DNA of 24,103 bases from an uncultured Nitrososphaerota archaeon (lineage in GTDB: Archaea > Asgardarchaeota > Njordarchaeia > Njordarchaeales > Njordarchaeaceae), in assembly GCA_964518475.1 (NCBI GenBank), contig CAZFGR010000017.1, forward strand, positions 1 to 24,103, in the 5' to 3' direction. The notes beneath the pieces are model-generated. The model saw only the letters and a list, made by a program, of their open reading frames with translations, ran no database searches and had not been told where the DNA came from. This document shows, piece by piece, positions 1 through 13,395 of this stretch; positions within the stretch are counted from its first letter, which is position 1, and each line of letters starts with the position of its first letter. A program made the translations under genes and the position numbers.

Positions 1-84
1 GCACTAAGCCCTAATTAAACGGCTGAGAGAGGCTTAGAAGGTCGGACGGGACAAGAGGCAAAAAGATAAATTTGAAACAAAGCC
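1..84 (+). mobile_element. Right end of an IS5-like insertion sequence (last transposase codons plus terminal inverted repeat), truncated by the window edge
   Basis: 1-18 reads ALSPN*, the same C-terminus as the transposase remnant ending at 11745. 1-84 aligns without gaps to the reverse complement of 11679-11762, and the terminal 28 bp (GGCAAAAAGATAAATTTGAAACAAAGCC) are identical. Confidence 0.88.
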
Positions 85-125
85 ACTACATCAGTAAATA
101 TTAAATAGATACAACTATGTATAAG

Positions 126-155
126 TAGTGATATATGTATAGATAGTGATATATG
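126..155 (+). repeat. Direct repeat TAGTGATATATG x2 (126-137, 144-155) in the promoter region
   Basis: Exact 12-bp duplication with 18-bp period just upstream of the leader hairpin. Confidence 0.7.
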
Positions 156-2428
156 ACCTAGCCACCACCACTAAAAACATTAATAATGGAGAGAAAAAGT
201 GGTGGTGGCGGTGCAAACTAAAAGAATTTTTTTTTCTCATAATTTTTACTCTCCTTTTAATAAGCCCTACATGGCTTATTAAAAATCTGCATGCTGAAAC
301 ATTTCGAATACCAAGCAAAAGGGTCTACGAACTAATAGAGAATTGGGATTTTAACACTACTAATGGATGGAAGGTATTAACAGGGAGAGCATCCATTACC
401 AGTACAGATTCTCTTTCTCCTGCGTATTCACTGTACGCTACACCGATACTTACTTCGAATAAGATATATGTTTTTGACATGGTTTACGCATTAGATAGTG
501 AGAAATTAGATGTAGCTAAAGGCCAAACAGTTCTCTTTGGTTATAATATAAAATTGCCATCACCGGATTATTATGTAAGTGCGTATGCTAAGATCCTATA
601 CGAAAAAACTGAAAGTTTACCACCAGGTGGTGGCTGTCCATACGTTCTATCTTGGGATGGTTCAGAATACGTGATTGAGAATAATATTTTGCCTCAATCT
701 GAAGACTATTTCTGGCCAGTAATAGTGGAAGATTATTACGTGTTACAACATGCTATTTCGTCATCAAGTATTAAGGTAAAGATCGTAGAATTTGAGAGGG
801 AAAAAAGTTTTATCTACAGCGTATCAATGTACAGTATAGTTCATCCTAAAGAATATTATGTTACAGTGGATTCCAGAGGAAAAGTACTGTTTTGGACCCC
901 CTTTGCAATAAAAACTCCAAGTCTAGCTTTAAATGATAAAGGAGAAAAAATTACGGGGTATCTAAAATGGGTTGATGAGTTAGCCTACGAGGGTAGAAAA
1001 GGAGAATCTATAATCGTAACCTTCAGGAACATAACAAATAGGGATAACCTAAAACTCATAATAAGAGCAGACCTAAAGACTATTTTCTCATTAAAGATGT
1101 ATGTCCTATCAATTACGGGTAAATGGATATATATTACAACGATCCATCCAAGAGAACTATGGGCTTTCCACGGTGTAGATTTGGCACCATATGGGGATAT
1201 CCTAACACCTGATAATATTACAATAAAAATCGTCTTTACATCGAGGCACAAGATAGATTTTGTAGGTCTTGATACAGCGCCAGCACCAAACTATGATATC
1301 AGAGAACTTCCTCTCGTAAAAGCATGGCATTCAAGATTTAAGAATGTAAAAAGCAGACTAAGTAGTAATAAAAAACCAGTGATAATCATTCCTGGAGACG
1401 AGTTATATCTAGAATTCAGCAATACTGAATACGGAAACTTGACCCATACAGTCACGTATGTATTAAAAATTAGGGGTTGGTACACAAAGGCGAGTAAAAA
1501 GGAGATAATTAGCGGTAAAGCACGACTAAGAGAAATTGATCCTACTTATGTAGCAGCGGAAGCTCACTTATCAATAACTGGAAATGCATCAACTTGGTAC
1601 GAAATATTAACTCTCGGAACAATACCAAGTGATGCCACTGCAGTAAAATTTGAGATAGTATTATATAGTGACAAAGATTTCAGAGCGTACATAGATGTAG
1701 CAAAAAGTAAGTTTGTGAAACAAGCAGTGTATAGTGATTTCATAGACATGAAATTAGTAGTAATATATGCTGATTATTGGGAGTTCTCGGGCACTGGGCA
1801 TAGAGGATTAGAAATGTTCTTTACAATAGTTTTTGATGCAAGTGACTTTTGTTCAAGACCATATAGGATGGTCAAAAAATGGGGTATAGAAGCTATAGAA
1901 GAAAATACGTACTCATCCATTTGGCTCAAAATTTCAGCTGATGATTGCGTTGGTTTTGACAGTGCTAGAGGTACAAATTATAAAGCATCTGATGTGGTTG
2001 AAACCTATAGAAAAACACATTATAATATCCTACTAGCTGTAGGGACTGGATTAGAAATTATCAAAGCAGGAATAACCGCCGCTACGGCGTATTCTATATT
2101 CGCTGGCGTTACTATTCCGTATCTTGCTGTAGTGAGCTTTGCCGCCGGGGTTGCCTCACTTATATATACATATTACAAGGCTAGTGATTGGGAAGGTAAA
2201 AACCTAACTCTATACGATGCGGCGGATAATAAAGAAGGCAGTAAAAATCGGGTATGGGTATATGTCCCCAGTTACGATGTTCCAGTTTCGAAGTATAGCC
2301 AACTCGTTATCTTTCTTCAATGGGAAAAAGCTAATGAGAACACCCATTTGCGTGTAATAGGTAAAGTAATGCTTCTCGATCATCACGCTACAATTTGGCA
2401 AAAAGTTTCCATAGATATTTACTATTAA
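146..2428 (+). CDS. Large secreted/surface protein: signal peptide, CBM-like jelly-roll interrupted by a CPYxxxWDG domain, C-terminal region with a hydrophobic hairpin. Start uncertain (GTG 146 in frame, or GTG 199-211 via a poly-T frameshift)
   Basis: 760-aa ORF. H-region FLIIFTLLLISP; CBM-like motifs ENWDFN..GW and W..LGTIPSDATAVKFEIVL..AYID; GGGCPYVLSWDG at aa 161-172; Gly/Ala-rich hydrophobic stretch at ~2027-2179. Confidence 0.8.
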   Translation: MIYDLATTTKNINNGEKKWWWRCKLKEFFFLIIFTLLLISPTWLIKNLHAETFRIPSKRVYELIENWDFNTTNGWKVLTGRASITSTDSLSPAYSLYATPILTSNKIYVFDMVYALDSEKLDVAKGQTVLFGYNIKLPSPDYYVSAYAKILYEKTESLPPGGGCPYVLSWDGSEYVIENNILPQSEDYFWPVIVEDYYVLQHAISSSSIKVKIVEFEREKSFIYSVSMYSIVHPKEYYVTVDSRGKVLFWTPFAIKTPSLALNDKGEKITGYLKWVDELAYEGRKGESIIVTFRNITNRDNLKLIIRADLKTIFSLKMYVLSITGKWIYITTIHPRELWAFHGVDLAPYGDILTPDNITIKIVFTSRHKIDFVGLDTAPAPNYDIRELPLVKAWHSRFKNVKSRLSSNKKPVIIIPGDELYLEFSNTEYGNLTHTVTYVLKIRGWYTKASKKEIISGKARLREIDPTYVAAEAHLSITGNASTWYEILTLGTIPSDATAVKFEIVLYSDKDFRAYIDVAKSKFVKQAVYSDFIDMKLVVIYADYWEFSGTGHRGLEMFFTIVFDASDFCSRPYRMVKKWGIEAIEENTYSSIWLKISADDCVGFDSARGTNYKASDVVETYRKTHYNILLAVGTGLEIIKAGITAATAYSIFAGVTIPYLAVVSFAAGVASLIYTYYKASDWEGKNLTLYDAADNKEGSKNRVWVYVPSYDVPVSKYSQLVIFLQWEKANENTHLRVIGKVMLLDHHATIWQKVSIDIYY
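161..209 (+). promoter_or_regulatory. Leader hairpin covering the probable translation start
   Basis: Perfect 12-bp inverted repeat GCCACCACCACT (161-172) / AGTGGTGGTGGC (198-209) with a 25-nt loop containing GGAG (188-191). GTG codons at 199/202/205 lie in the 3' arm. A homologous structure occurs at 12830-12870. Confidence 0.7.
227..235 (+). repeat. T9 homopolymer in the signal-peptide coding region
   Basis: With T8, GTG199 reads MVVAVQTKRIFFLIIFTLLLISPTW in frame with the long ORF. With T9 that frame terminates early. Confidence 0.7.
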
Positions 2429-2450
2429 AATATTGCTGAGGGGAAAGAAA

Positions 2451-3842
2451 ATGTCAAGAAAGATTTTCCTGGTTATTTCTTTTACTGTTATTTTCCTCGT
2501 TACCAGTGTCTCCTTTTACCAAGTGTCTTTAATAGTCGTCCCAGACAACAATGAGAGATTTATTGATGTCCTTATTCAGAGAATGACGATGTATGATGAC
2601 TGGCTATTAAACAATTTTTCATATTTTTCCTTTAGAACCCCTAGTGAGAAACCTTCATTATGGATCATGTCGACCGCTTATTACTTGATCGGTCTAAAGG
2701 CTTTGGTGAAGTATTTCCCTGACGTATTAAGGGGCGTAAGGCTTAATGAGGTAATCGACTGGCTCATTAACCAATTAGAAAAGAATAATTGGAGGGTAAC
2801 TAAACCCTATGGAATATCTCCAGAAAAATACGTTATTTCTAATGCCTCATATTTCTTGTTCTTAACAATTCGGGCTCTAAGCTTATGGGGTGCTGTGGAT
2901 CGGATAAACAGAACCGCGGTCATTGAATATGTTCTTGATCGCTATAACGAAACTGTTGGAGGATTTCGAGAGATTCCTCCTCCCAATAAGACCTATGCAC
3001 CTCTATGGTTCCCTGGACTAACTGATGGAGGGTACTATAGCGAGTTAATCGCCTTTTACAGATTCTTCACTATGCCAAATCTCTTATCCACATCTCTTGC
3101 CCTCGGCATCCTCTATTACCTAGATGCCTTAGACATGATTAACGTCTCTAAGGTCATCGAATTCATCTTAGCTTGTAAGACTGAGAAGGGGTTCTTTAAG
3201 CCATCCCCCTACGGTAAGCCTGGCGAGACATATCCCATTGATGTTAACGGCACATTGGTTCCGTACATCTATGCAGGGGTCATGAGTCTTTACTATCTCG
3301 ATAGGCTAGACCTGCTGAACGATACAGAGAGGGAGAATATTGGGGAATACTTCATTTATTTAGGTATTTCTATGGATGGTAAAATGCTTCCGGGGAAGTA
3401 TATTACGTGGAACCGCGAGTTTGCTTTCTCAAGGGCGGTCATAAACTTGGAGTTGAATACTCTTAACGTCATTGAGACCATGGGTATCCTCGGATTGGCT
3501 AAAGAATACGAAAGCTGGCTCAAGAAACTCGCTTTAAGGTTTATTTACAATCCCTTCTCCCCCGCTATACATGTACCATACACCTCTGCATTCCCCATAC
3601 CCCAGCCAAATGATCATTATACCTACGGAGAAGGAACTGGTCACCAAGCTATTGCCCCGATACCCGCCTATATGCTCCATTGCTTTGACGCAGCAGGTAT
3701 TTTCAATGTCCTATATACCCTGACCCCTAGAGCAGTACAGTGCAGAGAAAACTTTGAGATTCTAGCCATAATAACTGGTCTCTTAGCAGTTGCCATTGCA
3801 CAAGTAATCAGGGTAGTCTGGAGAAAACTCCGAAAGAGCTAG
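2451..3842 (+). CDS. Membrane-anchored prenyltransferase/squalene-oxidase-repeat (alpha/alpha barrel) protein
   Basis: Repeats IEYVLDRYNETVGGF, VIEFILACKTEKGFF, STSLALGILYYLDAL and YAGVMSLYYLDRL resemble protein prenyltransferase beta-subunit repeats. N-terminal signal/TM and C-terminal TM with basic tail. ATG 2451 follows GAGGGG, 22 nt after the upstream stop. Confidence 0.72.
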   Translation: MSRKIFLVISFTVIFLVTSVSFYQVSLIVVPDNNERFIDVLIQRMTMYDDWLLNNFSYFSFRTPSEKPSLWIMSTAYYLIGLKALVKYFPDVLRGVRLNEVIDWLINQLEKNNWRVTKPYGISPEKYVISNASYFLFLTIRALSLWGAVDRINRTAVIEYVLDRYNETVGGFREIPPPNKTYAPLWFPGLTDGGYYSELIAFYRFFTMPNLLSTSLALGILYYLDALDMINVSKVIEFILACKTEKGFFKPSPYGKPGETYPIDVNGTLVPYIYAGVMSLYYLDRLDLLNDTERENIGEYFIYLGISMDGKMLPGKYITWNREFAFSRAVINLELNTLNVIETMGILGLAKEYESWLKKLALRFIYNPFSPAIHVPYTSAFPIPQPNDHYTYGEGTGHQAIAPIPAYMLHCFDAAGIFNVLYTLTPRAVQCRENFEILAIITGLLAVAIAQVIRVVWRKLRKS

Positions 3843-3860
3843 TTCTAGGAAAAAGAGCAA

Positions 3861-3888
3861 TATTTTTTATTTCTTTTTCTTTGTTTTC
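3861..3888 (+). terminator. Putative archaeal oligo-T terminator
   Basis: TATTTTTTATTTCTTTTTCTTTGTTTTC shortly after the stop at 3842. Confidence 0.45.
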
Positions 3889-4165
3889 TCATCACAAGTT
3901 TTCCCGAGTAAAATCTATTCTAAACAAATTCGAGGAAGATCCCATTTTCGCTGCTCATATCTAATTTCTTAGAGTCATTTATACCTAGCTTCTTCTCAGC
4001 CAATCCTTTATTCTTATTAGAAAGCACTTCTTTTCTTATATCGTAAATAAGAGGCTTTGTAAGCTTTCTTTATAGTCTCAATTACTGAGGTCTATCAATT
4101 CTCGTTTTTAGAACGGTGAGTGTTTGGGAAATAAAAAACAGTTACATTTATTTTAGGTTTTTAGC

Positions 4166-4181
4166 GAAGTATTAATACTTC
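4166..4181. promoter_or_regulatory. Perfect 16-bp palindrome GAAGTATTAATACTTC over a TATA-like box
   Basis: Dyad symmetry seen directly, about 27-42 bp upstream of ATG 4208. Confidence 0.45.
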
Positions 4182-4207
4182 CTAAATTAATGATTTATGG
4201 GGGATAT

Positions 4208-4345
4208 ATGATGCAGATTCCCGCAGAAACGGGTTTTGGAATAGCTCTCCTACTTATTGGTTTGCTCATGTATTTGCTTATAAGAAGCGATGTAAAATTC
4301 GTGTATTCTACTAGAAAGAGGACTAAGGAAGAGAAAACAGAATAG
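4208..4345 (+). CDS. Small single-pass membrane protein (45 aa), not in the ORF track
   Basis: MMQIPAETGFGIALLLIGLLMYLLIRSDVKFVYSTRKRTKEEKTE*: one TM helix followed by a basic tail. GGGGG precedes the ATG. Confidence 0.65.
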   Translation: MMQIPAETGFGIALLLIGLLMYLLIRSDVKFVYSTRKRTKEEKTE

Positions 4346-4364
4346 GTTTAAAGGATGCGGAAGC

Positions 4365-4427
4365 GAGTGAAATGATGAGTGTGCCCCAGGCTGAAGAGTG
4401 ATGAGCTTCCGCTCTGGCTGAAAACTC
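4365..4427 (+). ncRNA. Box C/D 2'-O-methylation guide sRNA
   Basis: C box ATGATGA 4372-4378, 12-nt guide GTGTGCCCCAGG, D' CTGA 4391-4394, C' GTGATGA 4398-4404, 13-nt guide GCTTCCGCTCTGG, D box CTGA 4418-4421, short terminal stem GAGT/ACTC. Canonical archaeal spacing. Confidence 0.9.
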
Positions 4428-4508
4428 TAGCTTTTTCCATATTTATAATTCTTCCGATGATTCGCAATGTTTTGTATGCCTATCTATTTGTTAGTTTCTT
4501 TCATCTAG

Positions 4509-5165
4509 TTAGAGTAGGTCTTTAGGAAGTTGTGATCGGAAATCGGCGATACTGACGAATCTTTCCATTATGAGTGGAGAAAGAATAATGTTTTGAGCAA
4601 TGAAATGTGCTAATAGTGGGGATATAACACCTATTATGGCGCCGGTGAGTAGTTGCATGGGTGTGTGGATTCTGAGCTTTACTCTGCTCCACCCTATTAC
4701 TGGGGCTAAGACTAAGAGGATATAGACTAGAGGGGTGGTATAGAGCCCCAGCAATATTATGGGGGCTACGAAACCGCCTACATGTACGCTCGGTTTCGAG
4801 AAGATATTTCCAATAATTAATATAGAGGAAAATATAGCATACATCACATGGAGACTTATCAGGAATGCGTAAATACCCAGACTTGCTTGTCTGCAGAAAT
4901 ATACCGCACCAGCAACATAACTGATTAAACCAATTATGACGAACGGTATTCGTTCACGATTACTTAGCATGCTGGGGCTTACTCCTTTAAATATACTATA
5001 AGCAACAACTGGGCCCCAAGGTAAAAGATATAGGAAAACAATAACTCCTATAAGAGCCTCCGTTGTTAAGTGGTAAGGGTGGAATAGGTAATATATGAGC
5101 AAAACATAAGCACATACAAACGGGGCGTTCAAAACATTCGAGATAACACTAGCGATCCTTGTCAT
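4509..5165 (-). CDS. PAP2-superfamily membrane phosphoesterase-like protein
   Basis: Multi-TM protein with KPSVH and SRVKLRIHTPMQLLTG, matching PAP2 C2/C3 motifs. Confidence 0.75.
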   Translation of the reverse strand: MTRIASVISNVLNAPFVCAYVLLIYYLFHPYHLTTEALIGVIVFLYLLPWGPVVAYSIFKGVSPSMLSNRERIPFVIIGLISYVAGAVYFCRQASLGIYAFLISLHVMYAIFSSILIIGNIFSKPSVHVGGFVAPIILLGLYTTPLVYILLVLAPVIGWSRVKLRIHTPMQLLTGAIIGVISPLLAHFIAQNIILSPLIMERFVSIADFRSQLPKDLL

Positions 5166-5202
5166 AACTCACCCCTATTACATACCATATAGTATTAATT
5201 AT

Positions 5203-6564
5203 TTACTTTTTATCTAACCGTTTCGACAACTCAATAAGAATCTTGACAAGCTTTTCGGGATCCTTACCTAGAAGCACTATCATGGGTTCCTTCCCAATAT
5301 CGCCTCTATGATATATTACGTCAGGTACTTCACCCAGCCTTTTTATAGCTTCTCGAGTACCCCAAGGAATACTCATTCCCTCGATCTTCTTTATCTCCTC
5401 CGGCTCCTGCGTTCTCTCGTAATACGATATTTTGAGCCCCATACGTTCTAACTCTCTCAATATTCCCTCATTATATTTTATATTAATAGCCGAATTTATT
5501 TCCGGATCATATTCTCTCGCAACCAAAATGTATGAGGCGAGATGCCTAGATACTCCAAAATCTGGACAACCAGCAGCTTTGGCTCTACCCATTACTGGTC
5601 TTATTCTCCCAGGAATAGCGATTACATCAGAAGAATCTACTGCATAATCAAGAGCAATAGCAATATTCATACCGACCTCCGGGACTAACTTAGCGAGACC
5701 CTCCTCAGACTCGATAATATCCAATAATCCCAGAATCTTCCTGTATTTCTTGTAACGCTCAGCCTCGCGGTAAAGCGATGCCATATGGTTAACTGGACCG
5801 AATCCCTGACCTATATCGAGCCCGAATTTTATGGCAAGGTAAATAAACTTTTTCGCTTTTTCTACTGCTTTAGAAAGAGGCTGTCCCTTAGCTAGTTCAG
5901 CCGCTATTGCTGCGGAGAATGTACATCCCGTTCCATGCGTATTTTTACTATCTATTCTAGGAGTCTTGTAGAAATAGTATTCCCCGTTCCAATACATCAC
6001 ATCGATAGCTTCTTCTCCAACCTCTACATGTCCTCCCTTTACTATAGCTGCCTCACATCCATACTTCTCTACAATCATTTTAGCGGCTTTCTTCATGTCT
6101 TCTACATTTTTTATATCCATGTTTGTTAATGCTTTTGCCTCATTGAGGTTAGGGGTCACGACTTTTGCTAGGGGAAGAAGCTCCTTTATTAAGGTCTCTC
6201 TGGCTTCTGGATCCATTAATGGGGCACCAGACTTCGCTATCATGACTGGATCAACAACTAGTGGGAAATCATAATTCTTTACCTCCCCAGCAACAGCTTT
6301 GATTATTTCTGACGTCCTCAGCATACCCGTTTTTGCAGCATCTACCCCAATATCCTCTACAACAGCTTTTATCTGAAGCTTTATAACATCTGGGGGGACA
6401 TCGTGGATAGCAAGGACTTCCCGAGTGTTCTGAGCAGTGATTGAAGTAATAACACTCATTCCAAATACTCCCAACGCAGAAAAAGTTTTCAAATCAGCCT
6501 GAATCCCTGCTCCTCCACCAGAATCAGACCCAGCTATGGTCAATGCTTTAAAAATCCGCATCAT
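5203..6564 (-). CDS. thiDN: Bifunctional hydroxymethylpyrimidine/phosphomethylpyrimidine kinase - thiamine-phosphate synthase (ThiD-ThiN fusion)
   Basis: ALTIAGSDSGGGAGIQADLKTF, VVDPVM, TPNLNEA and THGTGCTFSAA (ThiD), followed by LVPEVGMNI, FGVSRHLA and GKEPMI (ThiN). GGAGG upstream of ATG 6564. Confidence 0.95.
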   Translation of the reverse strand: MMRIFKALTIAGSDSGGGAGIQADLKTFSALGVFGMSVITSITAQNTREVLAIHDVPPDVIKLQIKAVVEDIGVDAAKTGMLRTSEIIKAVAGEVKNYDFPLVVDPVMIAKSGAPLMDPEARETLIKELLPLAKVVTPNLNEAKALTNMDIKNVEDMKKAAKMIVEKYGCEAAIVKGGHVEVGEEAIDVMYWNGEYYFYKTPRIDSKNTHGTGCTFSAAIAAELAKGQPLSKAVEKAKKFIYLAIKFGLDIGQGFGPVNHMASLYREAERYKKYRKILGLLDIIESEEGLAKLVPEVGMNIAIALDYAVDSSDVIAIPGRIRPVMGRAKAAGCPDFGVSRHLASYILVAREYDPEINSAINIKYNEGILRELERMGLKISYYERTQEPEEIKKIEGMSIPWGTREAIKRLGEVPDVIYHRGDIGKEPMIVLLGKDPEKLVKILIELSKRLDKK

Positions 6565-6730
6565 AAAACCCTCCACAAAATAAGAATGAAAGCATTTACC
6601 AGACTCGAAAAATAGACGTATCGTTATTTAATTCTAGCCTATATTAAAACCTTCCTATCCAGAATCAGTTATGGGGAAAAGAAAGCTTTAATTCCTCATC
6701 TAACAGAAAAAGAGATTGTTATTGGGTTTC

Positions 6731-7243
6731 CTAGTCAAAGAAGCGGAATGGGATAAAGTGTATTACTGGAGGATCTATGGGTCTATAAGTCCACCGTTCC
6801 ATAATTGTTGGTATAATTATCGTCTCGTAACCATTTATGGAGGGGATCCTGATCTTCTTGTACTTCCATATTATCAATTCTACGGGTCCTAATCCAGAAT
6901 TCGAGAGTTGGTGGACTAGATCGGCGTAGATAGCTGTTATTATAGCGTTAATATTTTTTATGGGATTGTTCCTGGGACTATCCACAATGGTTCTTAATTC
7001 TGCATCACTCAGGATTTTCTCATTCACAAAATTCATTGATACTTCTCCTTCCTTATTGAGAAGTACTTTTATGGTGGATTCGCAAAGTTTTACAAGCTCT
7101 AGGGCTAGTTCGGCGGATAGGGTCTCTAATCCCTTTAATCTTATAACAATGATTACTTGATCATTTTTCTTGGCGGGGAATATTTCTATGCGAGGGATAT
7201 AGGTTCTCCTCCTAACTGGGCCCCTTGTCCGCAAAAAAGGCAC
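6731..7243 (-). CDS. Hypothetical protein
   Basis: 170-aa ORF filling the gap with protein-like composition; no recognised motif. Confidence 0.6.
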   Translation of the reverse strand: MPFLRTRGPVRRRTYIPRIEIFPAKKNDQVIIVIRLKGLETLSAELALELVKLCESTIKVLLNKEGEVSMNFVNEKILSDAELRTIVDSPRNNPIKNINAIITAIYADLVHQLSNSGLGPVELIIWKYKKIRIPSINGYETIIIPTIMERWTYRPIDPPVIHFIPFRFFD

Positions 7244-7385
7244 CTAGAAGTAGAGATTTAAAAACATCGATTACATACCAATTTCTTTATAAATCTTATT
7301 GGGTAGTCTATTCATGGCATTAAAAACTAGAACTCATTATGTTTATTGGCCTAATTTAACATTGATATTTCTGGAGGAGAAGATA

Positions 7386-8150
7386 TTGCGTATAAATGGA
7401 CCAGAGAAGTTCCTGATAGTGGCTTCACTCATTCTTTTTGGAATTGGCGTTTTATCATATATAGAACCGCAAATAGGTATTGCTCTCAACAATGCAATTA
7501 CTGGCTGGATCAAAGGCTCTCTCGGCTCTGAAAACCTTATCTATCTCTACATAATCGCTATGGTATCAGTAATTATCGCGAATGCCTCGGTATTTATATA
7601 CATTCCTTACCCAATTATTCTCTTCTCCCTAGCCGCTAAACCAGAAGTAAATCTTATAGTATTAATCATTGTCTCAAGCATAGGAGCAGCAATAGGGGAG
7701 CTAAGCTCCTACTTAATAGGTTTTATTGGCAAAAAAGCAGCAGAGGATATTGAAAAATACAGGAAAAAAGCAGAAGCTATGCGACGGTTGCTGGAAACGA
7801 GACCGTTACTGGTTCCCTTTATTGTGTTTTTTATGGCTCTTACTCCTTTACCAGACGACGTCATTTTAATCCCATTAGGTTTCGTGGGTTATAGCTTGGT
7901 GAAGTCTGTCATAGCTTGTTTCTTGGGAAAATTTGTCTTAATAACTGTAATTATTCTAGGTGGTAGAATATTCGGAGAAGCAATCATAAAATGGCTCACA
8001 AATTCCAATAATACTCCATATCCATGGCTTGACGACATAATTATTCTCTACATCGTAGTAATAATAATCTATGTGATTCTGAAAATAGACTTTACAAAAA
8101 TAGCGGCTAAATTAGGCATTAGTATTGAAGAAGAAAAGGAAGAATCTTAA
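7386..8150 (+). CDS. DedA/VTT (SNARE-associated Golgi) family membrane protein
   Basis: SSIGAAIGELSSYLIG, ALTPLPDDVILIPLG and ACFLGKF motifs. TTG 7386 follows GGAGG. Confidence 0.85.
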   Translation: MRINGPEKFLIVASLILFGIGVLSYIEPQIGIALNNAITGWIKGSLGSENLIYLYIIAMVSVIIANASVFIYIPYPIILFSLAAKPEVNLIVLIIVSSIGAAIGELSSYLIGFIGKKAAEDIEKYRKKAEAMRRLLETRPLLVPFIVFFMALTPLPDDVILIPLGFVGYSLVKSVIACFLGKFVLITVIILGGRIFGEAIIKWLTNSNNTPYPWLDDIIILYIVVIIIYVILKIDFTKIAAKLGISIEEEKEES

Positions 8151-8443
8151 TACCCCATTCAAAACCAATATGTTGCATCCCTAAGCAAAAATATTACTAA
8201 ATTAGATACCTAGGCTAACTACCTCATTATAAAATTCTTGTAGTTTATAAATGAGAGGGAATGCATGAGATTAGAAAATATTCTATAGTCTCCTAAGCGT
8301 CTTTGAGCCTTGCAAAATACTAAGAAATAGTGATTTAGTAGGATGTCTAAACACGTAAGTATGGTAAAATTTAAAACAATAATCCCTTTTCAGCATATAT
8401 GTATATTTTTTACCTAGGTATTAATTCCTTAAGGGGAGAAATA

Positions 8444-8803
8444 GTGGAGTATCACCACTCCAAAAGGTTTGATAAAACTTCCCTAAGAGCTGTTCTCAGA
8501 GGGGTCAAGGAGTTATTAATACTAAGTATTATAAAAGAGAGACCAGTTCATGGAAGCGAGATCCAAAAGATCTTAAAGGAGCGGTATGGACTGGATATTC
8601 CTAAGCCGATTGTATACATGTTATTACGGAGAATGGAAGAAGAAGGTTATATCATTTCTCAGTGGGAGATAGGGGGGAGCGGCCCAGCTAAGCGGGTTTA
8701 TCGAATAACTGATGAAGGACTCGATCATCTTAACTACTCCATAGAACTTTTAGAGAAACTTAAAAAAATTATTGAGGATGTCTTGAAAGAGATAAGAAAA
8801 TAG
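8444..8803 (+). CDS. PadR-family transcriptional regulator
   Basis: LLILSIIKERPVHGSEI, VYMLLRRMEEEGYI, GPAKRVYRITDEG. GTG 8444 follows GGGGAG. Confidence 0.92.
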   Translation: MEYHHSKRFDKTSLRAVLRGVKELLILSIIKERPVHGSEIQKILKERYGLDIPKPIVYMLLRRMEEEGYIISQWEIGGSGPAKRVYRITDEGLDHLNYSIELLEKLKKIIEDVLKEIRK

Positions 8804-8808
8804 GTATT

Positions 8809-9852
8809 GTGGGGGGGTTATTTTTGAAAGATTACGCCATAGTTACTGAGAACCTTACCAAGATCTACAAAGACAAGAATCAAGAAGTTGTAGCTGTTGA
8901 TCATGTGAGTATAAAAATTAAGTATGGAGAATTTTTCGGGTTACTAGGACCTAATGGGGCCGGAAAAACAACTTTCACGAAAATGCTTGCTACCTTACTA
9001 ATCCCAGACGAGGGAGAAGCGTGGATTGAGGGATACTCGATACTAAAGGATCCTATCGAGGTAAGAAAAAGAATTGGGTGGATGATGGGAGAAACTGGTG
9101 GAAGAGCGCTTTACTGGAGGCTATCTGGTTGGGATAATCTAATGTTCTTTGCCAGTATCCTGAATGTGCCCAAGGATGTTGCTGAGAAGAGAGCTAGAAC
9201 CTTGTTAGAGTTTCTCGAACTTGAAGACGCCGCCAATAAATTAGTGATGAACTATTCTACTGGGATGAGAATAAAGCTCATGCTGATTAGAGCACTACTT
9301 CACAACCCCGACATTCTTATCCTAGACGAACCTACTCTAGGACTAGATGTTGAGTCTGCGATAAAAGTGCGCACATTTTTGAGAAGACTGACGGATGAGC
9401 TCGGTAAAACGATTCTATTTACGTCTCACAACATGTATGAGGTAGAACAATTATGCGATAGGATAGCAGTGATTAACAAAGGTCGAATAGTATTTATTGG
9501 TACTCCTAGAGAGATAAGAGAGAAAGTTGAGGAAATGAAGATAATTGAGATCATTATCTCGTCCAAGGACTCTGATTTAGAAGACGTGATTAAAAGACTT
9601 CAGGGATTATCTGTTGTAAATACGATTCTCTCCCATGAAAAAGAGGCGAAGAGTTACAGGATTAGAGTAACAGTTGATGATTACTACGTAGCAATACCAG
9701 AGATAGCTCAAGCCCTGAAGGATTTCAAGGTCGAATCTATATCGAGAGCTCTGCCTACTCTCGAGGAAGCATTCCTTAAAATAGCAGGAGTCAGACTTGA
9801 GGAAACAGAGAAGCCTCGAAGAATCAGAAGACCGGGGAGAGGTGCGCACTAA
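8809..9852 (+). CDS. ABC-2 exporter ATP-binding subunit (DrrA/NodI-like); start may be TTG 8824
   Basis: Walker A GPNGAGKTT, signature YSTGM, Walker B ILDEPT, H-loop SH, C-terminal PTLEEAFL. Confidence 0.93.
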   Translation: MGGLFLKDYAIVTENLTKIYKDKNQEVVAVDHVSIKIKYGEFFGLLGPNGAGKTTFTKMLATLLIPDEGEAWIEGYSILKDPIEVRKRIGWMMGETGGRALYWRLSGWDNLMFFASILNVPKDVAEKRARTLLEFLELEDAANKLVMNYSTGMRIKLMLIRALLHNPDILILDEPTLGLDVESAIKVRTFLRRLTDELGKTILFTSHNMYEVEQLCDRIAVINKGRIVFIGTPREIREKVEEMKIIEIIISSKDSDLEDVIKRLQGLSVVNTILSHEKEAKSYRIRVTVDDYYVAIPEIAQALKDFKVESISRALPTLEEAFLKIAGVRLEETEKPRRIRRPGRGAH

Positions 9853-10724
9853 TGGATATTATCGAGATTTTTCGGGAAGAAGGAGAAGAAAAAGGCTTCC
9901 ACGCATTTTTGAGGAGAGCCTTGGCATCCTGCTATTACCAATTAAAGATCTATACATCCTATAGAATGAATTTCGCATTAGATCTCATAGATATCACCAT
10001 AAGTGCTTTAATCTATTACTATATAGGTCTTCTAGTCTCTCCACAAGACCTTGCAAAACTAGGATACACCCCAGATTACGTAGCTTTTGCGTTAGCGGGT
10101 ATTGCATTATCGAGATACATATGGACCTCTGTAGCTAGACTAGCACATAAAATGAGACACGAAATATCCGCTGGAACGTTCGAAAGTTTAGCAGCTGTAG
10201 ATTTTGATAATTTTAAGGGCTGGTTAGTTGGTCAAATACTATACGGATTCACATGGTCATCAACAGTATTCTTTATCACCATTTTCATCGGCTATTCATT
10301 GGGAGCAACATTCACTAGGAATCCAATTTTTTGGCTCCAAGCGCTATTCATAGTACTATTAACGGTTCTTATCCATGCTGGTATCGGGGTCATGGCTGCT
10401 GGAATGTATATTATTCATAAACAATTAGAGACCCTACTGGTATTGTTAACAGCTGTTATAGAGTTCTTTGGAGGGGTTCTTTACCCATTATCCCTCCTAT
10501 GGAACTACCCACTACTCTATTACATCGCTATTCTCATACCATTTACTCATGGTTTAGAACTATTTAGGAGACTAATAATTGATGAAATACCTCTGAACAA
10601 TCCAATGATGATTCCCCACTTATTAGCCCTCCTCGTATTCGTCCCGATAATCTTCTTAGGTTTTAAAGTATTCGAGTACTACTTATACAAAGCCAAGAAA
10701 CTTGGCTTAGTAGCAGCTTATTAG
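9852..10724 (+). CDS. ABC-2 type permease
   Basis: About six TM segments, EISAGTFESL, FGGVLYPL, PFTHGLELFR. Stop/start overlap with the ATPase gene. Confidence 0.9.
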   Translation: MDIIEIFREEGEEKGFHAFLRRALASCYYQLKIYTSYRMNFALDLIDITISALIYYYIGLLVSPQDLAKLGYTPDYVAFALAGIALSRYIWTSVARLAHKMRHEISAGTFESLAAVDFDNFKGWLVGQILYGFTWSSTVFFITIFIGYSLGATFTRNPIFWLQALFIVLLTVLIHAGIGVMAAGMYIIHKQLETLLVLLTAVIEFFGGVLYPLSLLWNYPLLYYIAILIPFTHGLELFRRLIIDEIPLNNPMMIPHLLALLVFVPIIFLGFKVFEYYLYKAKKLGLVAAY

Positions 10725-10735
10725 GGGGCTTCTAA

Positions 10736-11605
10736 TTGAGTATGGAGGAAGTCTTGAATCTCTTTAAGGAAAAACATGAGGCACGAGTTAGTTCCGTTTA
10801 TAAAGTATACATGGCTTTTCTTAGAAGAGCGAAGATTAGGTTAAACTATAAGACATGGATGCTATTTGATTTCGCTACAACAATGTTTAATGTCTTCACG
10901 TATTTTCTCTTATCCTTCATTATTCTACCTCAACAAGTAGCGAAGGCTGGTTACGGGTACAGCTACTTCACCTTCGCCGTCATTGGCCTAGCTGCATCCC
11001 ATTACATAACCGCTGGATTAAGGAGCCTAGCCCTAACTATCAGACTAGAGCAGTTCTATGGCACGATAGAATCGATACTTTCCACCCCCACGGATTTCAT
11101 AGTTCTTTTCTTGGGAGATTTGTTATACTACGTTATTTACTCAAGTGTCTTCTTAGTAATGATTCTTCCCCTAGGAATATTTCTTGGGGCTCAGATAGTT
11201 ATAAACATCTATACGATAATCACATTACTAATCCTGATCCTATTATTGGTGCTGAGCAACTTACCTATCGGAATTCTTTCAGCAGCAATGGTTCTGAAAT
11301 TCAAGCAAGGAGACCCAATAGGCTGGGCCCTAACATGGATAAACCAGTTATTTGGAGGAACGTTCTTCCCAATAACTCTCCTTCCCACTGGATTAAGAAT
11401 TCTCTCTTACGGTCTTCCCCTAACATACGCACTAGATGCTATAAGATACTCCCTAGTATGGGGCGCCTCCTTAACGCATCCAAGAATACTAAACGATGTC
11501 TTAGCCATGATAGTATACACAATAATAGGATACCCCATCGCCATAAAGGTATTCAGAATGGTTTATAAAGGAGCATTAAAAGAAGGAAAACTCGGAATCT
11601 ACTAG
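10736..11605 (+). CDS. ABC-2 type permease (second subunit)
   Basis: EQFYGTIESILSTP, FGGTFFPITLLP, PLTYALDAIR. Confidence 0.9.
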   Translation: MSMEEVLNLFKEKHEARVSSVYKVYMAFLRRAKIRLNYKTWMLFDFATTMFNVFTYFLLSFIILPQQVAKAGYGYSYFTFAVIGLAASHYITAGLRSLALTIRLEQFYGTIESILSTPTDFIVLFLGDLLYYVIYSSVFLVMILPLGIFLGAQIVINIYTIITLLILILLLVLSNLPIGILSAAMVLKFKQGDPIGWALTWINQLFGGTFFPITLLPTGLRILSYGLPLTYALDAIRYSLVWGASLTHPRILNDVLAMIVYTIIGYPIAIKVFRMVYKGALKEGKLGIY

Positions 11606-11678
11606 AAATAGAATGTAGGGAATTAGTAGAGATTAGAGAATGCCTCTGCATCAAGAACACTTATTTTTTCTTTTAACA

Positions 11679-12745
11679 GGCTTTGTTTCAAATTTATCTT
11701 TTTGCCCCTTGTCTCGTTCAGCCTTCTAGACTCCTCCTAAGCCACTAATTGGGACTTAACGCTACTATCCTGGCCACGTTGTAGGCTAGGACTGCGATGA
11801 AGGCGTCGCAGATTCTCGCCTCCCAAGACCTACTATAGATCATATCCCTGAGCATAGACTTTAAGGAGAGGAAAGCAACCTCTACGAGACTCCTAACATT
11901 ACCAACTAAGTCCCAGAAGGTTCCGTAGTTCGTTTAAGGCCTAAGTCTAGATCCGCTCCTAGGCATCAACTTCTTAGTCCTAGCTAGTATAATGGGGACT
12001 AGTCCATGTCTCTCTATGGCTTCTACAGCATCAGTTGTATCCGTGAGCACTCCCCAGAAGATCTTGGTACTCACCGAGGCTTCGAAGAGGTAGTTTCTGA
12101 AGGCTTCGATCTCGGAGAATGCGCCGAGAGTGGTGACAGCGTCGAAGAAGGCGTTGATCTCCAGAGCATACAGAACAGTCACGACAAGTATTCTCGCCTC
12201 ATCCTCACCTGCTCTAGGTAGTGGTTCGACGCTCTCCCAAGTCTGATACCAGTGCCGTCCATAATCGCCAATTATTTCCATTTCCCGCGAGTTCTCATTC
12301 TCGCCAGTCTGTGGAAAGAGAGTCTTATCGGTAGGACTACAGTGGCTAGTAGGTCTCCCACCCAGTCGAGGATGCTGGACTCAGCACTTTTTCTAAGCCG
12401 ATTCTCCTATACGTGTTGAGTCTCTTGAGATCGTCTAGTGCTCGTCTATAACTCTGGTTACTGAGGACTATCCATGCCAGAACGGCTATCTTGGAGGCTG
12501 AGATATACCTCCTTGACCTCTCCTCTTTCTTTGACATGGGGGGCTTTTTTAGCCAGTTTATAAATAGCCTTAATAATTGTAAACCTACCGAGCCACATAT
12601 TTTTCATTAGGGGTGCTCTTCTTCTGGCGTGGTCGCAAGTGATACAGCTATGATACCTATAAAAGTACCCTCGTCACAAAGTCACAAGAGAGGCGTTGAC
12701 TGGCGAGAAATAGGCTGAGAAAGGAGATAAATTAGAAACAAAGTC
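11679..12745 (-). mobile_element. Decayed IS5-family-like insertion sequence, 1067 bp
   Basis: Terminal inverted repeats GGCTTTGTTTCAAATTTATCT (11679-11699) and AGATAAATTAGAAACAAAGTC (12725-12745), 19/21 match. The GGCTTTGT end and the size recall IS903-group elements. No target duplication visible. Confidence 0.85.
11745..12537 (-). pseudogene. Frameshifted DDE transposase
   Basis: Fragments in different frames: SNQSYRRALDDL (N-terminal), LAIMDGTG (first Asp), FSEIEAF..GVLTD, RSLVEVAFLSLK (Glu motif) and AVLAYNVARIVALSPN*. Confidence 0.85.
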
Positions 12746-12758
12746 TAGCCCAAAATAT

Positions 12759-12826
12759 TTTTAATACATAGATGCTTTTAATATATAGATGCTATGTTAG
12801 ATGTTTATATACTAGATGTTTTATAT
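12759..12826 (+). repeat. Four TAGATG-core short direct repeats in the promoter region
   Basis: TTTTAATACATAGATGC (12759-12775), TTTTAATATATAGATGC (12776-12792), TAGATGTTTATA (from 12798), TAGATGTTTTATA (from 12813). Confidence 0.65.
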
Positions 12827-12829
12827 TTG

Positions 12830-12870
12830 AGCCACCACTAGATATATGAAAAATGGTGAAAGTGGTGGCT
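12830..12870 (+). promoter_or_regulatory. Leader hairpin homologous to 161-209
   Basis: Perfect 10-bp inverted repeat AGCCACCACT / AGTGGTGGCT with a 21-nt loop containing GGTGA (12855-12859). GTG 12862/12865 lie in the 3' arm. Confidence 0.7.
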
Positions 12871-13213
12871 TATAAAAAATCGAAATTTATAGTTTTTTTT
12901 CATCTTAATTGCATTCTTAGCAACTCCACTCAAGTTTAATTGCCTAAATAAAAGTCATTTTTTGAACATAAATAATAGCCTTTTGTCATATTCTTATAAT
13001 GGTAATTTCAGTATAATACAAGCCTATCCTTATCCCCGTAGACAACCAATCCCATGGAATATCAAGTTTATAAATGCTGAAAATGCAACAAAATATGTTG
13101 GTAAAAGTATTTCTAAAGCTCAAATAGCTATAATAGATACAGGAGTCGATTATGACCATGAGGATCTCACAAAACATACGCTTTGGGTAAATGGTTATCC
13201 AAACAATTCATAG
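12862..13213 (+). pseudogene. Truncated secreted subtilisin-like (S8) protease with a poly-T frameshift in its signal peptide
   Basis: QPIPWNIKFINA..IAIIDTGVDYDHEDL is the start of an S8 mature domain with the catalytic Asp, but it stops before the His/Ser motifs. Removing one T from T8 (12893-12900) gives the signal peptide MVAYKKSKFIVFFILIAFLATPL. Confidence 0.8.
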
Positions 13214-13395
13214 CAAAAAAGGTATCTTCATAAACTACATTTAATTTCCCGTAATTATATGTTATTACATATTAATTCGCCATTAATAGCTCTTGATGCT
13301 CAATTGCTTGTAAAATTTTCAATATTCAAAAATAAATACTAAAAAATTCTATTTCTTTTTTTTTTAAAAAAGAGAGATTTTGCTGGTGGAAATTA

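Follow-up and report, generated by a model that had tools for sequence, protein, structure and literature searches.

A start cassette with a start-codon-pairing hairpin and an apparently out-of-frame T tract stands before two unrelated genes of an uncultured archaeon

The two leader regions and their genes

The window, that is, the whole stretch of DNA analyzed here (24,103 nt of contig CAZFGR010000017.1 from an uncultured archaeon), begins inside an IS4/IS5-like insertion sequence (IS), whose right end occupies positions 1-84 (+ strand) and carries the terminal repeat at 65-82. Downstream lies an ORF for a 760-aa product, the body of which (236-2428, +) comprises 730 intact codons and encodes the h-region, the cleavage region, and the mature part of an exported protein. 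The leader between them (copy 1) contains a tandem 18-nt direct repeat in the sequence (116-133 and 134-151, +), which overlaps the probable promoter; the TATA equivalent at 137-145 (+) aligns with the canonical TATA box, TTTATATA, of a second leader described below. The gene caller placed the in-frame start of the 760-aa product at GTG146 (146-148, +), which we judge an unlikely start. Next comes hairpin 1, a perfect 12-bp stem with a 25-nt loop (161-172 with 198-209, +), recognized as an inverted repeat and by folding. Its loop contains the Shine-Dalgarno (SD) motif GGAG (188-191, +), 11 nt ahead of GTG199, and its 3' arm contains GTG199, GTG202, and GTG205 (+). The frame that opens at GTG199 (199-282, +) encodes a signal-peptide n-region and ends after 27 residues at a stop at 280-282. 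Within it lies a run of nine Ts (T9; 227-235, +), which marks both the n-/h-region junction of the signal peptide and the junction of the two reading frames. A second perfect 12-bp inverted repeat (hairpin 2; 255-284, +; -12.9 kcal/mol) lies inside signal-peptide codons.

The second leader (copy 2) has the same order of elements, namely direct repeats, a stem, an SD-like loop motif, GTG in the 3' arm, and a T run. Its promoter region comprises two direct-repeat pairs with TAGATG motifs (12759-12821, +) and the TATA box (12804-12811, +), followed by a perfect 10-bp stem with a 21-nt loop (12830-12839 with 12861-12870, +). The loop contains GGTG (12855-12858, +), and the 3' arm contains GTG12862 and GTG12865. 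A run of eight Ts follows (T8; 12893-12900, +), directly preceded by a TAG (12890-12892) that closes the downstream frame. Every element that the first-pass annotation of this DNA had described in either copy was found in its place.

Behind copy 2 lies the stump of a subtilase (S8) gene (12902-13213, +), which retains no more than the signal-peptide h-region and the end of the domain with the Asp motif. Its Peptidase_S8 match covers only profile positions 5-24 of 288 (E 0.034), no S8 continuation was found downstream in any frame, and no close relative was found among 20 related genomes; the stump still has 103 open codons. Copy 2 stands before a truncated gene with no product to control, and the switch control earlier proposed is not borne out for this copy, since nothing functional is switched there.

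The two leaders are homologous over ~150 nt, including the promoter repeats, hairpin, SD, GTG, and T run. Their alignment score is 62, compared with 26.4 +/- 3.8 in shuffled sequences, none of which (0/500) scored as high. From the GTG to ~9 nt beyond the tract, the copies are colinear and differ in length only by multiples of 3, and the T9 of copy 1 aligns with T8C of copy 2 as a colinear 9-nt block. Overall, the cassettes have diverged by ~38%. Thus, the shared leader module of the first-pass annotation stands as a homologous cassette of promoter, 5'-UTR with hairpin, and signal-peptide start, ~150 nt long, which occurs twice on the contig before two unrelated genes. The claim of a common order of elements holds for this cassette and fails for the part upstream of it, where the similarity (24-82 vs 12700-12743) is that of the IS terminal repeat and lies outside the leader.

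The end of a degenerate copy of the same IS (11681-12743, - strand; 68-76% identical to other copies) adjoins copy 2, and a contig that reaches 461 nt further upstream of copy 1 encodes a DDE_Tnp_1 transposase fragment. The IS terminal motif is present in 34 copies in the genome, many of them at contig ends. IS ends adjoin signal-peptide genes in 7 of 20 cases, weakly above the ~17% expected.

The idea that the module is reusable was not borne out, as neither the genome itself nor 13 genomes of the order, 399 of the phylum, or the JGI metagenome contigs yielded a third copy. The next nhmmer matches in the genome (E 0.089 and 0.56) were unrelated, BLAST searches with the leader against the 13 genomes of the order returned low-complexity matches only, and protein-pattern scans of metagenome and genome contigs recovered no relatives. 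A two-gap DNA pattern scan of metagenome contigs yielded eight hairpins, all unrelated. The pattern GCCACCAC-N10-40-GTGGTGGC occurs at these two places only in the 2.33-Mb genome. Of 399 other genomes in the phylum, two have a single occurrence each, and a reversed control pattern matched equally often. The search for further hairpin copies in the genome and its relatives, as suggested by the first-pass annotation, gave none that belong to this cassette beyond the two.

Hairpins over the probable start codons

In both copies, the initiation region is paired, with GTG199-205 and GTG12862-12865 lying in perfect stems and the SD in the loop. The hairpin of copy 1 folds at -21.5 kcal/mol (z -6.8) and that of copy 2 at -15.7 kcal/mol (z -5.8), and none of 200 shuffled sequences folded as well as either. 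At 80 C, the predicted energies are -7.4 and -4.0 kcal/mol, respectively, and the stems are predicted to persist to at least 80 C. The arms are identical between the copies save for one ACC unit in the 5' arm, which is matched by one GTG unit in the 3' arm; in this comparison of only two sequences, each arm of copy 1 is longer than its counterpart in copy 2 by one compensated 3-nt unit. The upstream, inter-arm, and downstream flanks, in contrast, are only 47-71% identical. Because the arms are near-identical while the flanks have diverged, we take the hairpin to be a conserved functional element. The start-codon-sequestering hairpin with its SD in the loop, as originally described, is real and has been kept between the copies through the compensated 3-nt indel. 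Rfam gave no match at gathering score in the whole window, the best weak match within 60-330 having E 0.29. Each loop also contains a short frame that opens with ATG (186-221 and 12846-12875); a role of these frames as uORFs was rejected, as the ATGs are at non-homologous positions and the peptides are unrelated.

Similar stems occur over other genes for secreted proteins of this genome. The 760-aa ORF has a paralogue (G000:C2:59394-61202), whose short n-region (MKNFAK...) begins in the 3' arm of its own 17-bp hairpin, an arm that also contains the SD of this gene. The 12 bp of hairpin 2 were reached by only 1 of 3000 synonymous recodings. In an energy-based test in this genome, signal-peptide genes in general tended slightly to fold more strongly around the start (p = 0.01), and the tail of the distribution held no significant excess; rare perfect stems over start and signal-peptide codons are the only enriched class among these genes. 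The hairpin is one of a small, statistically supported group of perfect stems that cover start or signal-peptide codons in genes for secreted proteins. No comparable stems were seen in distant homologues from other genomes.

Choice of start codon and the shared frame offset

Across the genome assembly, which does not include the 3' end of the 16S rRNA with the anti-SD sequence, the preferred position, counted from start codons, is -11/-12 for the first base of SD-like tetramers and -65 to -55 for TATA-like hexamers, and no TATA-like peak at -35 to -25, the signal of leaderless transcripts, was detected. This spacing fits GGAG188 with GTG199, as well as GGTG12855 and TATA12804 with GTG12865, but it does not fit GTG146, which has no SD-like tetramer in -16 to -3, lies upstream of the predicted transcription start site (TSS), and would give a product with a 27-residue n-region containing WWW. 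Because of the SD peak at -11, the TATA peak at about -60, and the missing leaderless signal, the analysis supports the GTG in the 3' arm (GTG199 and GTG12865), rather than GTG146, as the probable start. A start at these codons would therefore leave both genes out of frame by the same +1 T. Frame reading confirmed that the GTG199 N-terminus joins the h-region of the 760-aa ORF only upon loss of one T, as the first-pass annotation had stated: the surplus T in the run closes the GTG199 frame after 27 residues, and with one T removed from T9, this frame continues into the h-region and ORF body to form a textbook signal peptide. With one T fewer, copy 2 likewise gives a signal peptide again, and the offset proved identical in the two copies.

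A doubtful alternative, to which we give little weight, is that copy 1 has no frame offset at all: translation would begin at GTG146, both hairpins would lie in a long n-region, T9 would read as FFF, and copy 2 would be an unrelated dead remnant. The body frame of copy 1 does happen to be open from GTG146 through the tract, which speaks against the GTG199 reading, and the resulting N-terminus keeps K/R residues directly ahead of the h-region. Moreover, a TATA-like GTATAAGT at 119-126 could yield a leaderless transcript starting near 146, or read-through from the same-strand upstream IS transposase gene could include GTG146. However, besides the lack of an SD before GTG146 and of a leaderless signal in the genome, 30 open codons are expected by chance in ~13% of cases at this base composition (our estimate), n-regions in the paralogue and other family members measure only 5-7 residues, and the WWW encoded by the 3' arm resembles an off-frame reading. 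In addition, the homologous body frame of copy 2 contains three stops in the 25 codons before the tract, and this frame was therefore non-coding in the ancestor of the cassette. The in-frame leaderless GTG146 that the first-pass annotation had kept as an alternative is, on these grounds, a poor start.

Authenticity and rarity of the T runs

At the consensus level, the T9 run is genuine and not an assembly error. A Logan contig (depth 42.8) of the source run, one of the hydrothermal-sediment runs that contain this DNA, spans 84-11707 and shows no difference and no gap, and the site reads identically in contigs from the ENA MEGAHIT, ENA SPAdes, and NCBI assemblies. T9 is present in all five contigs, from at least three assemblies, and there is no length heterogeneity at the contig level, where minor alleles are invisible. 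The concern that the true tract might be T8 only is answered by the independent 43x contig and the three other assemblies, all of which carry T9. No T8-type protein or N-terminal fragment of the 760-aa gene was found among 15 billion catalogued proteins.

Both T runs lie inside signal-peptide codons of exported-protein genes and provide a slippery run of sufficient length (T9 and T8) at the frame junction, with the two frames overlapping at the run. Such runs are rare: the genome contains only 51 A/T runs of 8 or more, and only 8 sense-strand T runs of at least 8 are found in ~1.85 Mb of coding sequence. No other genomic run of at least 8 lies at a frame junction. A genome-wide scan that deleted or added one T in search of rescued signal peptides was too permissive and was dropped.

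The density of T runs of at least 8 is 24-fold higher just 3' of stop codons than in coding sequence. In archaea, an oligo-T run is itself a terminator, and the runs, enriched past stops and avoided in genes, behave as terminators here. This brings in transcription attenuation, whereby T9/T8, ~65-75 nt past the TSS, would terminate most transcripts, hairpin-blocked ribosome loading would decide on read-through, and the offset would be incidental. The preserved pairing of hairpin and run, 17-23 nt apart in both copies, and an A-rich stretch able to pair with the U run in both copies are in line with such a scheme. Nevertheless, we consider it very improbable, as it leaves the +1-frame translation of the body unexplained and in-frame T8 runs occur early in two other genes (on contigs C52, - strand, ~4229, and C10, - strand, ~47959).

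The shared offset bears on a different explanation, in which the tract is a site of programmed or tolerated recoding at the RNA level. Here, the +1 offset would be ancestral and selected, and either a fixed fraction of transcripts would lose one U or ribosomes would shift +1 on UUU_UUU_U, giving a low set protein level on top of the hairpin lock. The same offset in both copies, together with the colinear 9-nt T block, points in this direction and argues against the mechanism proposed below: an ancestral, tolerated offset is more parsimonious, requiring no event after the duplication as opposed to two independent +1 T events. Furthermore, the stump has kept its open codons despite the ~38% divergence of the cassettes, which suggests a long-translated cassette-S8 fusion, and the runs, at 8-9, are as long as those of known slippage sites (PMC1088944, PMC5009743), in a genome whose coding sequence is otherwise almost devoid of T runs of at least 8.

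Several observations nonetheless make recoding an unlikely explanation. The change required is the loss of one U or the gain of two, whereas known slippage sites in T/A runs (mxiE, dnaX) mostly add one. The non-shifted peptides (27 aa in copy 1 and 24-28 aa in copy 2) show no similarity beyond the tract, and hence there is no conserved second product. The codons that follow the tract and would occupy the A site, TCT (14.3 per 1000) and CAT (10.1 per 1000), are both common and offer no "hungry codon" for a +1 ribosomal shift, and copy 2 has no stimulatory structure 5-9 nt from the tract. The divergence of copy 2 may also reflect import with an old IS rather than time in place. Finally, genome and metagenome searches recovered no orthologue with a +1 offset; the one orthologue found (P0002, on contig L008; Ga0180302_10011278 of JGI sample 3300014887), 63% identical to the 760-aa product and conserved in synteny with the downstream partner gene, lies on a contig that lacks the 5' end and stops inside the signal peptide, 28 nt before the mature region.

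A proposed mechanism

Taken as a whole, these data lead us to propose, with a probability of roughly one half, that copy 1 is a signal-peptide cassette locked by its hairpin and thrown out of frame at a hypermutable T tract, and that the 760-aa gene is OFF or very leaky. From the genome-wide spacing, transcription is expected to start ~30 nt past the TATA-like box, where the 5' arm begins or close to it (~161-168), and the mRNA would therefore begin with the hairpin. Sequence and predicted folding show the SD exposed in the loop and the GTG start codon or codons paired in the 3' arm. The 5' arm, built of CCA/CAC units, would mimic an anti-SD/anti-start sequence, and initiation would therefore need melting of the stem. 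The GTG frame encodes a normal, positively charged n-region followed by T9 (T8 in copy 2), with the gene body in the +1 frame. On the sequence as it stands, ribosomes starting at the SD-positioned GTG would stop after 27 codons (24-28).

One T beyond the in-frame length would be the usual product of replication slippage at a homopolymer, here in an organism whose 91%-complete genome gave no MutS_V match and two NucS matches. With a tract one T too long, the 760-aa gene would therefore be OFF or very leaky in the sampled population, and full-length exported protein could be made only from DNA that has lost one T or from a minority of transcripts with RNA polymerase slippage. An intact body of 730 codons and the conserved synteny count against the OFF reading; if dead, the gene would have to be very recently dead. 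Within the proposed mechanism, the T tract may be a reversible, programmed switch, or it may be no more than the earliest damage to a decaying gene in a region riddled with IS elements. We regard as improbable the more far-reaching version in which the +1 offset is ancestral and selected and the exported proteins are made only via T8-T9 slippage, by RNA polymerase or as a heritable DNA contingency switch, layered on a 5'-terminal start-hiding hairpin that is one of the small set of perfect stems in this possibly Asgard-related archaeon.

Discussion

A homopolymer frameshift at the start of a gene is a familiar kind of event. In bacteria and archaea, poly(A) and poly(T) tracts show a preference for the 5' ends of genes, and a reversible frameshift has been described in inlA of Listeria monocytogenes (Orsi, Bowen & Wiedmann, 2010; PMC2831843). 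As in the inlA poly(A) tract (PMC2831843), an A/T homopolymer lies here among the opening codons of an exported-protein gene, and a one-base change in length severs the start from the body. Unlike in inlA, the tract is situated in the signal-peptide h-region and not just past the ATG, two homologous cassettes share one offset, and, in an uncultured archaeal host, only the out-of-frame state is seen at the contig level. Transcriptional slippage is triggered by runs of 8-9 or more, which are also under negative selection (PMC1088944). The T8/T9 runs have the slippage-prone length known from IS elements, Thermus dnaX, and Shigella type III secretion genes (PMC1088944, PMC5009743), and, like those runs (PMC1088944), they are counter-selected in coding sequence, in this genome too. 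Known programmed slippage is conserved across species and yields two functional products, whereas the unshifted peptides described here are not conserved.

With regard to the hairpin, the bacterial RNA thermometers ROSE and fourU and the fdnG signal-peptide stem-loop are 5'-UTR hairpins that sequester the SD or the start codon. The present stems resemble them in pairing the initiation region with an upstream arm and in being kept by a compensated change. Unlike in ROSE and fourU, pairing is confined to the start codon and leaves the SD in the loop, and, in contrast to mismatched, easily melted thermometers, the stems are perfect and G+C-rich, with a predicted stability that extends to 80 C or above. 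The arrangement of one promoter, leader, and export-signal start before unrelated gene bodies recalls the upstream homology box of the Borrelia Erp genes; unlike that box, the cassette exists in just two copies, which have diverged by ~38% and of which one stands before a gene stump, and gives no sign of ongoing homogenization.

The locus illustrates how gene callers can hide a frameshift, as the ORF was extended to an implausible GTG and a "WWW" N-terminus was produced. If mixed tract lengths or U8 transcripts prove true, the 760-aa gene would be among very few documented archaeal homopolymer switches or slippage-dependent genes, and a true switch would couple slippage to a conserved translational lock. 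The small group of perfect stems that cover start or signal-peptide codons in genes for secreted proteins forms a wider regularity of this genome.

A leader cassette shared by two unrelated genes

The leaders preceding the 760-aa ORF (copy 1) and the subtilase stump (copy 2) contain all elements described in the first-pass annotation, at the coordinates given there. Both carry tandem direct repeats 5' of a perfect stem, which comprises 12 bp with a 25-nt loop in copy 1 (161-209; -21.5 kcal/mol, z -6.8) and 10 bp with a 21-nt loop in copy 2 (12830-12870; -15.7 kcal/mol, z -5.8). The loops contain the SD-like motifs GGAG and GGTG, respectively, the 3' arms hold GTG codons, and a T9 (227-235) or T8 (12893-12900) run follows 17-23 nt past the stem. 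Read from the GTG, both copies begin with a short n-region of positive charge; in copy 1, this frame terminates after 27 residues. The proposed common +1 T offset holds as well: with one T removed, the n-region of either copy runs on into a hydrophobic core and the long ORF, and a textbook signal peptide results. An A-rich stretch able to pair with the U run is also present in both copies (191-198 with 231-238; 12874-12879 with 12893-12897), the copy 1 partner being the SD side of the loop (GAGAAAAA). Such pairing would create an alternative fold linking SD exposure to the tract.

Local alignment of the two regions scores 62, a value reached by none of 500 shuffles (26.4 +/- 3.8). The similarity farthest upstream (24-82 versus 12700-12743) corresponds to a terminal repeat belonging to an IS4/IS5-like element of ~1.06 kb with a DDE_Tnp_1 transposase. 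Genome-wide, 34 ends of this element occur, and many of them coincide with contig breaks; the window starts within one copy (1-84), and another lies at 11681-12743. True homology spans ~150 nt, beginning ~14 nt past each IS end and stopping ~9 nt beyond the T run. The shared unit is thus a cassette of probable promoter, predicted 5'-UTR and signal-peptide start placed before two unrelated bodies. A search with nhmmer found no third copy in the genome. The IS end lies 14-16 nt before the start of homology at both copies, in opposite IS orientations. Together with those at C2:59050-59067 and C26:518-535, these IS ends are directly 5' of several secreted-protein genes; overall, IS ends adjoin signal-peptide-type genes in 7 of 20 cases, versus ~17% expected, a weak excess.

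The copy 1 body encodes a 760-aa exported protein outside any Pfam family. One JGI metagenome supplies an orthologue with 63% identity (P0002), and contig C2 encodes a paralogue with 34% identity, which shares the motif TATAAGTAGTGAT with the copy 1 promoter repeats. The copy 2 body is a 103-codon subtilase stump retaining only positions 5-24 of the 288-position S8 profile; none of the frames continues with S8-like sequence. The following gene, a 598-aa NosD/beta-helix ORF, starts independently, with an SD, ATG and signal anchor of its own, and is separated from the stump by a T10 run followed by A6 (13356-13365), probably a terminator.

Identity between the copies is 65% in the upstream sequence and 47% from the arms to the T run. 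The hairpin arms are the same except for an extra ACC in the 5' arm and an extra GTG in the 3' arm of copy 1, a compensated indel. This pattern matches the expectation from selection for pairing, as far as two sequences with triplet repeats, which can expand unaided, may indicate, and on this comparison we take the hairpin to be a conserved element. The stem-arm pattern occurs only at these two sites in the genome; across 399 further genomes from the phylum, it gave 2 single matches, versus 2 for a reversed control, which is chance level.

Start codon assignment

Among ~1,900 crude gene calls of this genome, SD-like tetramers cluster at -11/-12 and TATA-like hexamers at -65 to -55 from starts, with no TATA peak at the position expected for leaderless promoters. 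GGAG188/GTG199 and GGTG12855/GTG12865 match this spacing, and copy 2 has a canonical TATA, TTTATATA, at 12804. By the genome-wide SD/TATA spacing, the predicted TSS falls at or near the opening bases of the 5' arm. The GTG at 146, raised earlier as a leaderless in-frame start, fares poorly: it lacks an SD, lies upstream of this predicted TSS and belongs to a genome without a leaderless peak. Its product would have a 27-residue n-region including WWW. The equivalent copy 2 frame contains three stops within 25 codons before the tract and is therefore non-coding in the cassette. In the C2 paralogue, a 6-residue n-region begins at a TTG that sits, with its SD, in the 3' arm of a separate perfect 17-bp hairpin (C2:59304-59340, or 1411-1447 of the surrounding stretch L004; -31 kcal/mol). 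From these sequence features, we place the intended start in the 3' arm, which would leave both genes off frame by one T. JGI, NCBI and ENA gene calls all place the start of the 760-aa product at GTG146 (146-2428), so that the catalogued protein carries a 27-residue N-terminus that is probably untranslated; actual use of GTG146 is, in our assessment, improbable.

The T runs and the shared offset

The T9 run is not an assembly artefact, since an independently built contig from the probable source run (depth 43) shows no difference or gap over 84-11707. MEGAHIT, SPAdes and one NCBI assembly yield contigs identical across the site, contigs being a consensus in which minority alleles are invisible. 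The 90% protein cluster holds only two 760-aa forms, differing solely in the first codon, written V or M, and catalogued proteins include neither a T8-type product nor an N-terminal fragment.

A/T runs of at least 8 number only 51 in the whole genome. On the sense strand, gene bodies (1.62 Mb) contain 5 T runs of this length and the initial 120 nt of genes another 3; such runs are 24-fold denser directly past stop codons, as expected from archaeal oligo-T terminators. Attenuation at oligo-T in the leaders strikes us as very unlikely. Two further early T8 runs (C52, C10) are in frame, and no other run of at least 8 lies at a frame junction in the genome; the +1 offsets are therefore peculiar to the cassette, with no genome-wide spray of homopolymer errors.

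The source MAG (2.33 Mb, 121 contigs, 38% G+C, 91% complete) derives from hydrothermal sediment, and the window covers the initial 24.1 kb of its contig C17. The organism is an archaeon, with Bathyarchaeia and Baldrarchaeota (57-58%) as the best named relatives for a housekeeping gene; Asgardarchaeia is the label on one homologue of the 760-aa protein. MutS (PF00488) has no match in this 91%-complete genome, and there are two NucS/EndoMS genes (C11:57833-58174, C18:11485-11802). In mycobacteria, NucS-type repair is not known to correct indel loops, a gap that would render homopolymers unstable.

Between the GTG and the end of the tract, the two copies are colinear, with length differences in multiples of three and T9 aligned to T8C, so the shared offset would be either ancestral or have arisen twice. 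An ancestral offset, tolerated through programmed slippage, is favoured by parsimony, by the subtilase stump that is still open and by the intact 730-codon body. Against it, the unshifted peptides lack conservation, the change required is -1 U or +2 U versus the usual +1, the A-site codons are common, copy 2 borders an aged, degenerate IS and may already have diverged when it was imported, and searches recovered no orthologous leader. We regard such programmed RNA-level recoding as unlikely, if somewhat less so than a start at GTG146. We favour, at roughly even odds (about 0.5), a frameshift at a hypermutable tract that would leave the genes OFF or leaky and expressed solely through DNA or RNA slippage, any adaptive switching being conjectural. 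On the plainer reading, the homopolymer would simply be the first site to alter once a gene becomes dispensable or is selected for silence; remnants of genes and copies of the IS abound in the region. Among described cases, the 5' poly(A) tract of inlA comes closest (PMC2831843). A/T tracts are generally biased to the 5' ends of bacterial and archaeal genes (PMC2831843), and slippage-prone runs have been reviewed (PMC1088944, PMC5009743).

Perfect stems over secreted-protein gene starts

Genome-wide, 11 of the 122 perfect stems of at least 10 bp lie on signal-peptide-type gene starts, versus 1.6% for random windows; neither cassette copy is counted among the 11, whereas two stems nested within the C8 palindrome are. 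Starts of other genes show no enrichment among these stems. A second perfect 12-bp inverted repeat (255-284; TTTTAATAAGCC / GGCTTATTAAAA; -12.9 kcal/mol) sits in the part of the 760-aa ORF that encodes the signal peptide, 19 nt past T9, and its length is matched by only 1 of 3000 synonymous recodings. In three secreted proteins that are paralogues, the signal-peptide codons likewise form stems of 20 bp (C33:13789-13840, or L016 390-441; reached by 0/3000 recodings), 18 bp (C8:51788-51827, in L017; 1/3000) and 10 bp (C91:922-961, in L019; 18/3000). A compensated change of G-C to A-T distinguishes the C33 and C8 stems, which also have different extensions; the C91 stem is absent from the orthologue in the same-genus genome G002. 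Across the genome, 5 signal-peptide-codon stems fall in signal-peptide genes, versus 0.9 expected. Besides the C2 paralogue, a signal-peptide gene on C13 has a perfect hairpin (18 bp; C13:8989-9038, or L018 290-339) with, as in C2, the SD (GGTGA) and start codon both in the 3' arm.

Overall folding energy is slightly shifted for signal-peptide genes (p = 0.01), with no significant excess in the tail, and comparable stems are absent from the homologues inspected in other genomes. The enrichment is limited to a handful of genes from a few paralogous families. Less commonplace is the placement, in this genome, of exceptionally perfect stems across the starts of several genes for secreted proteins.
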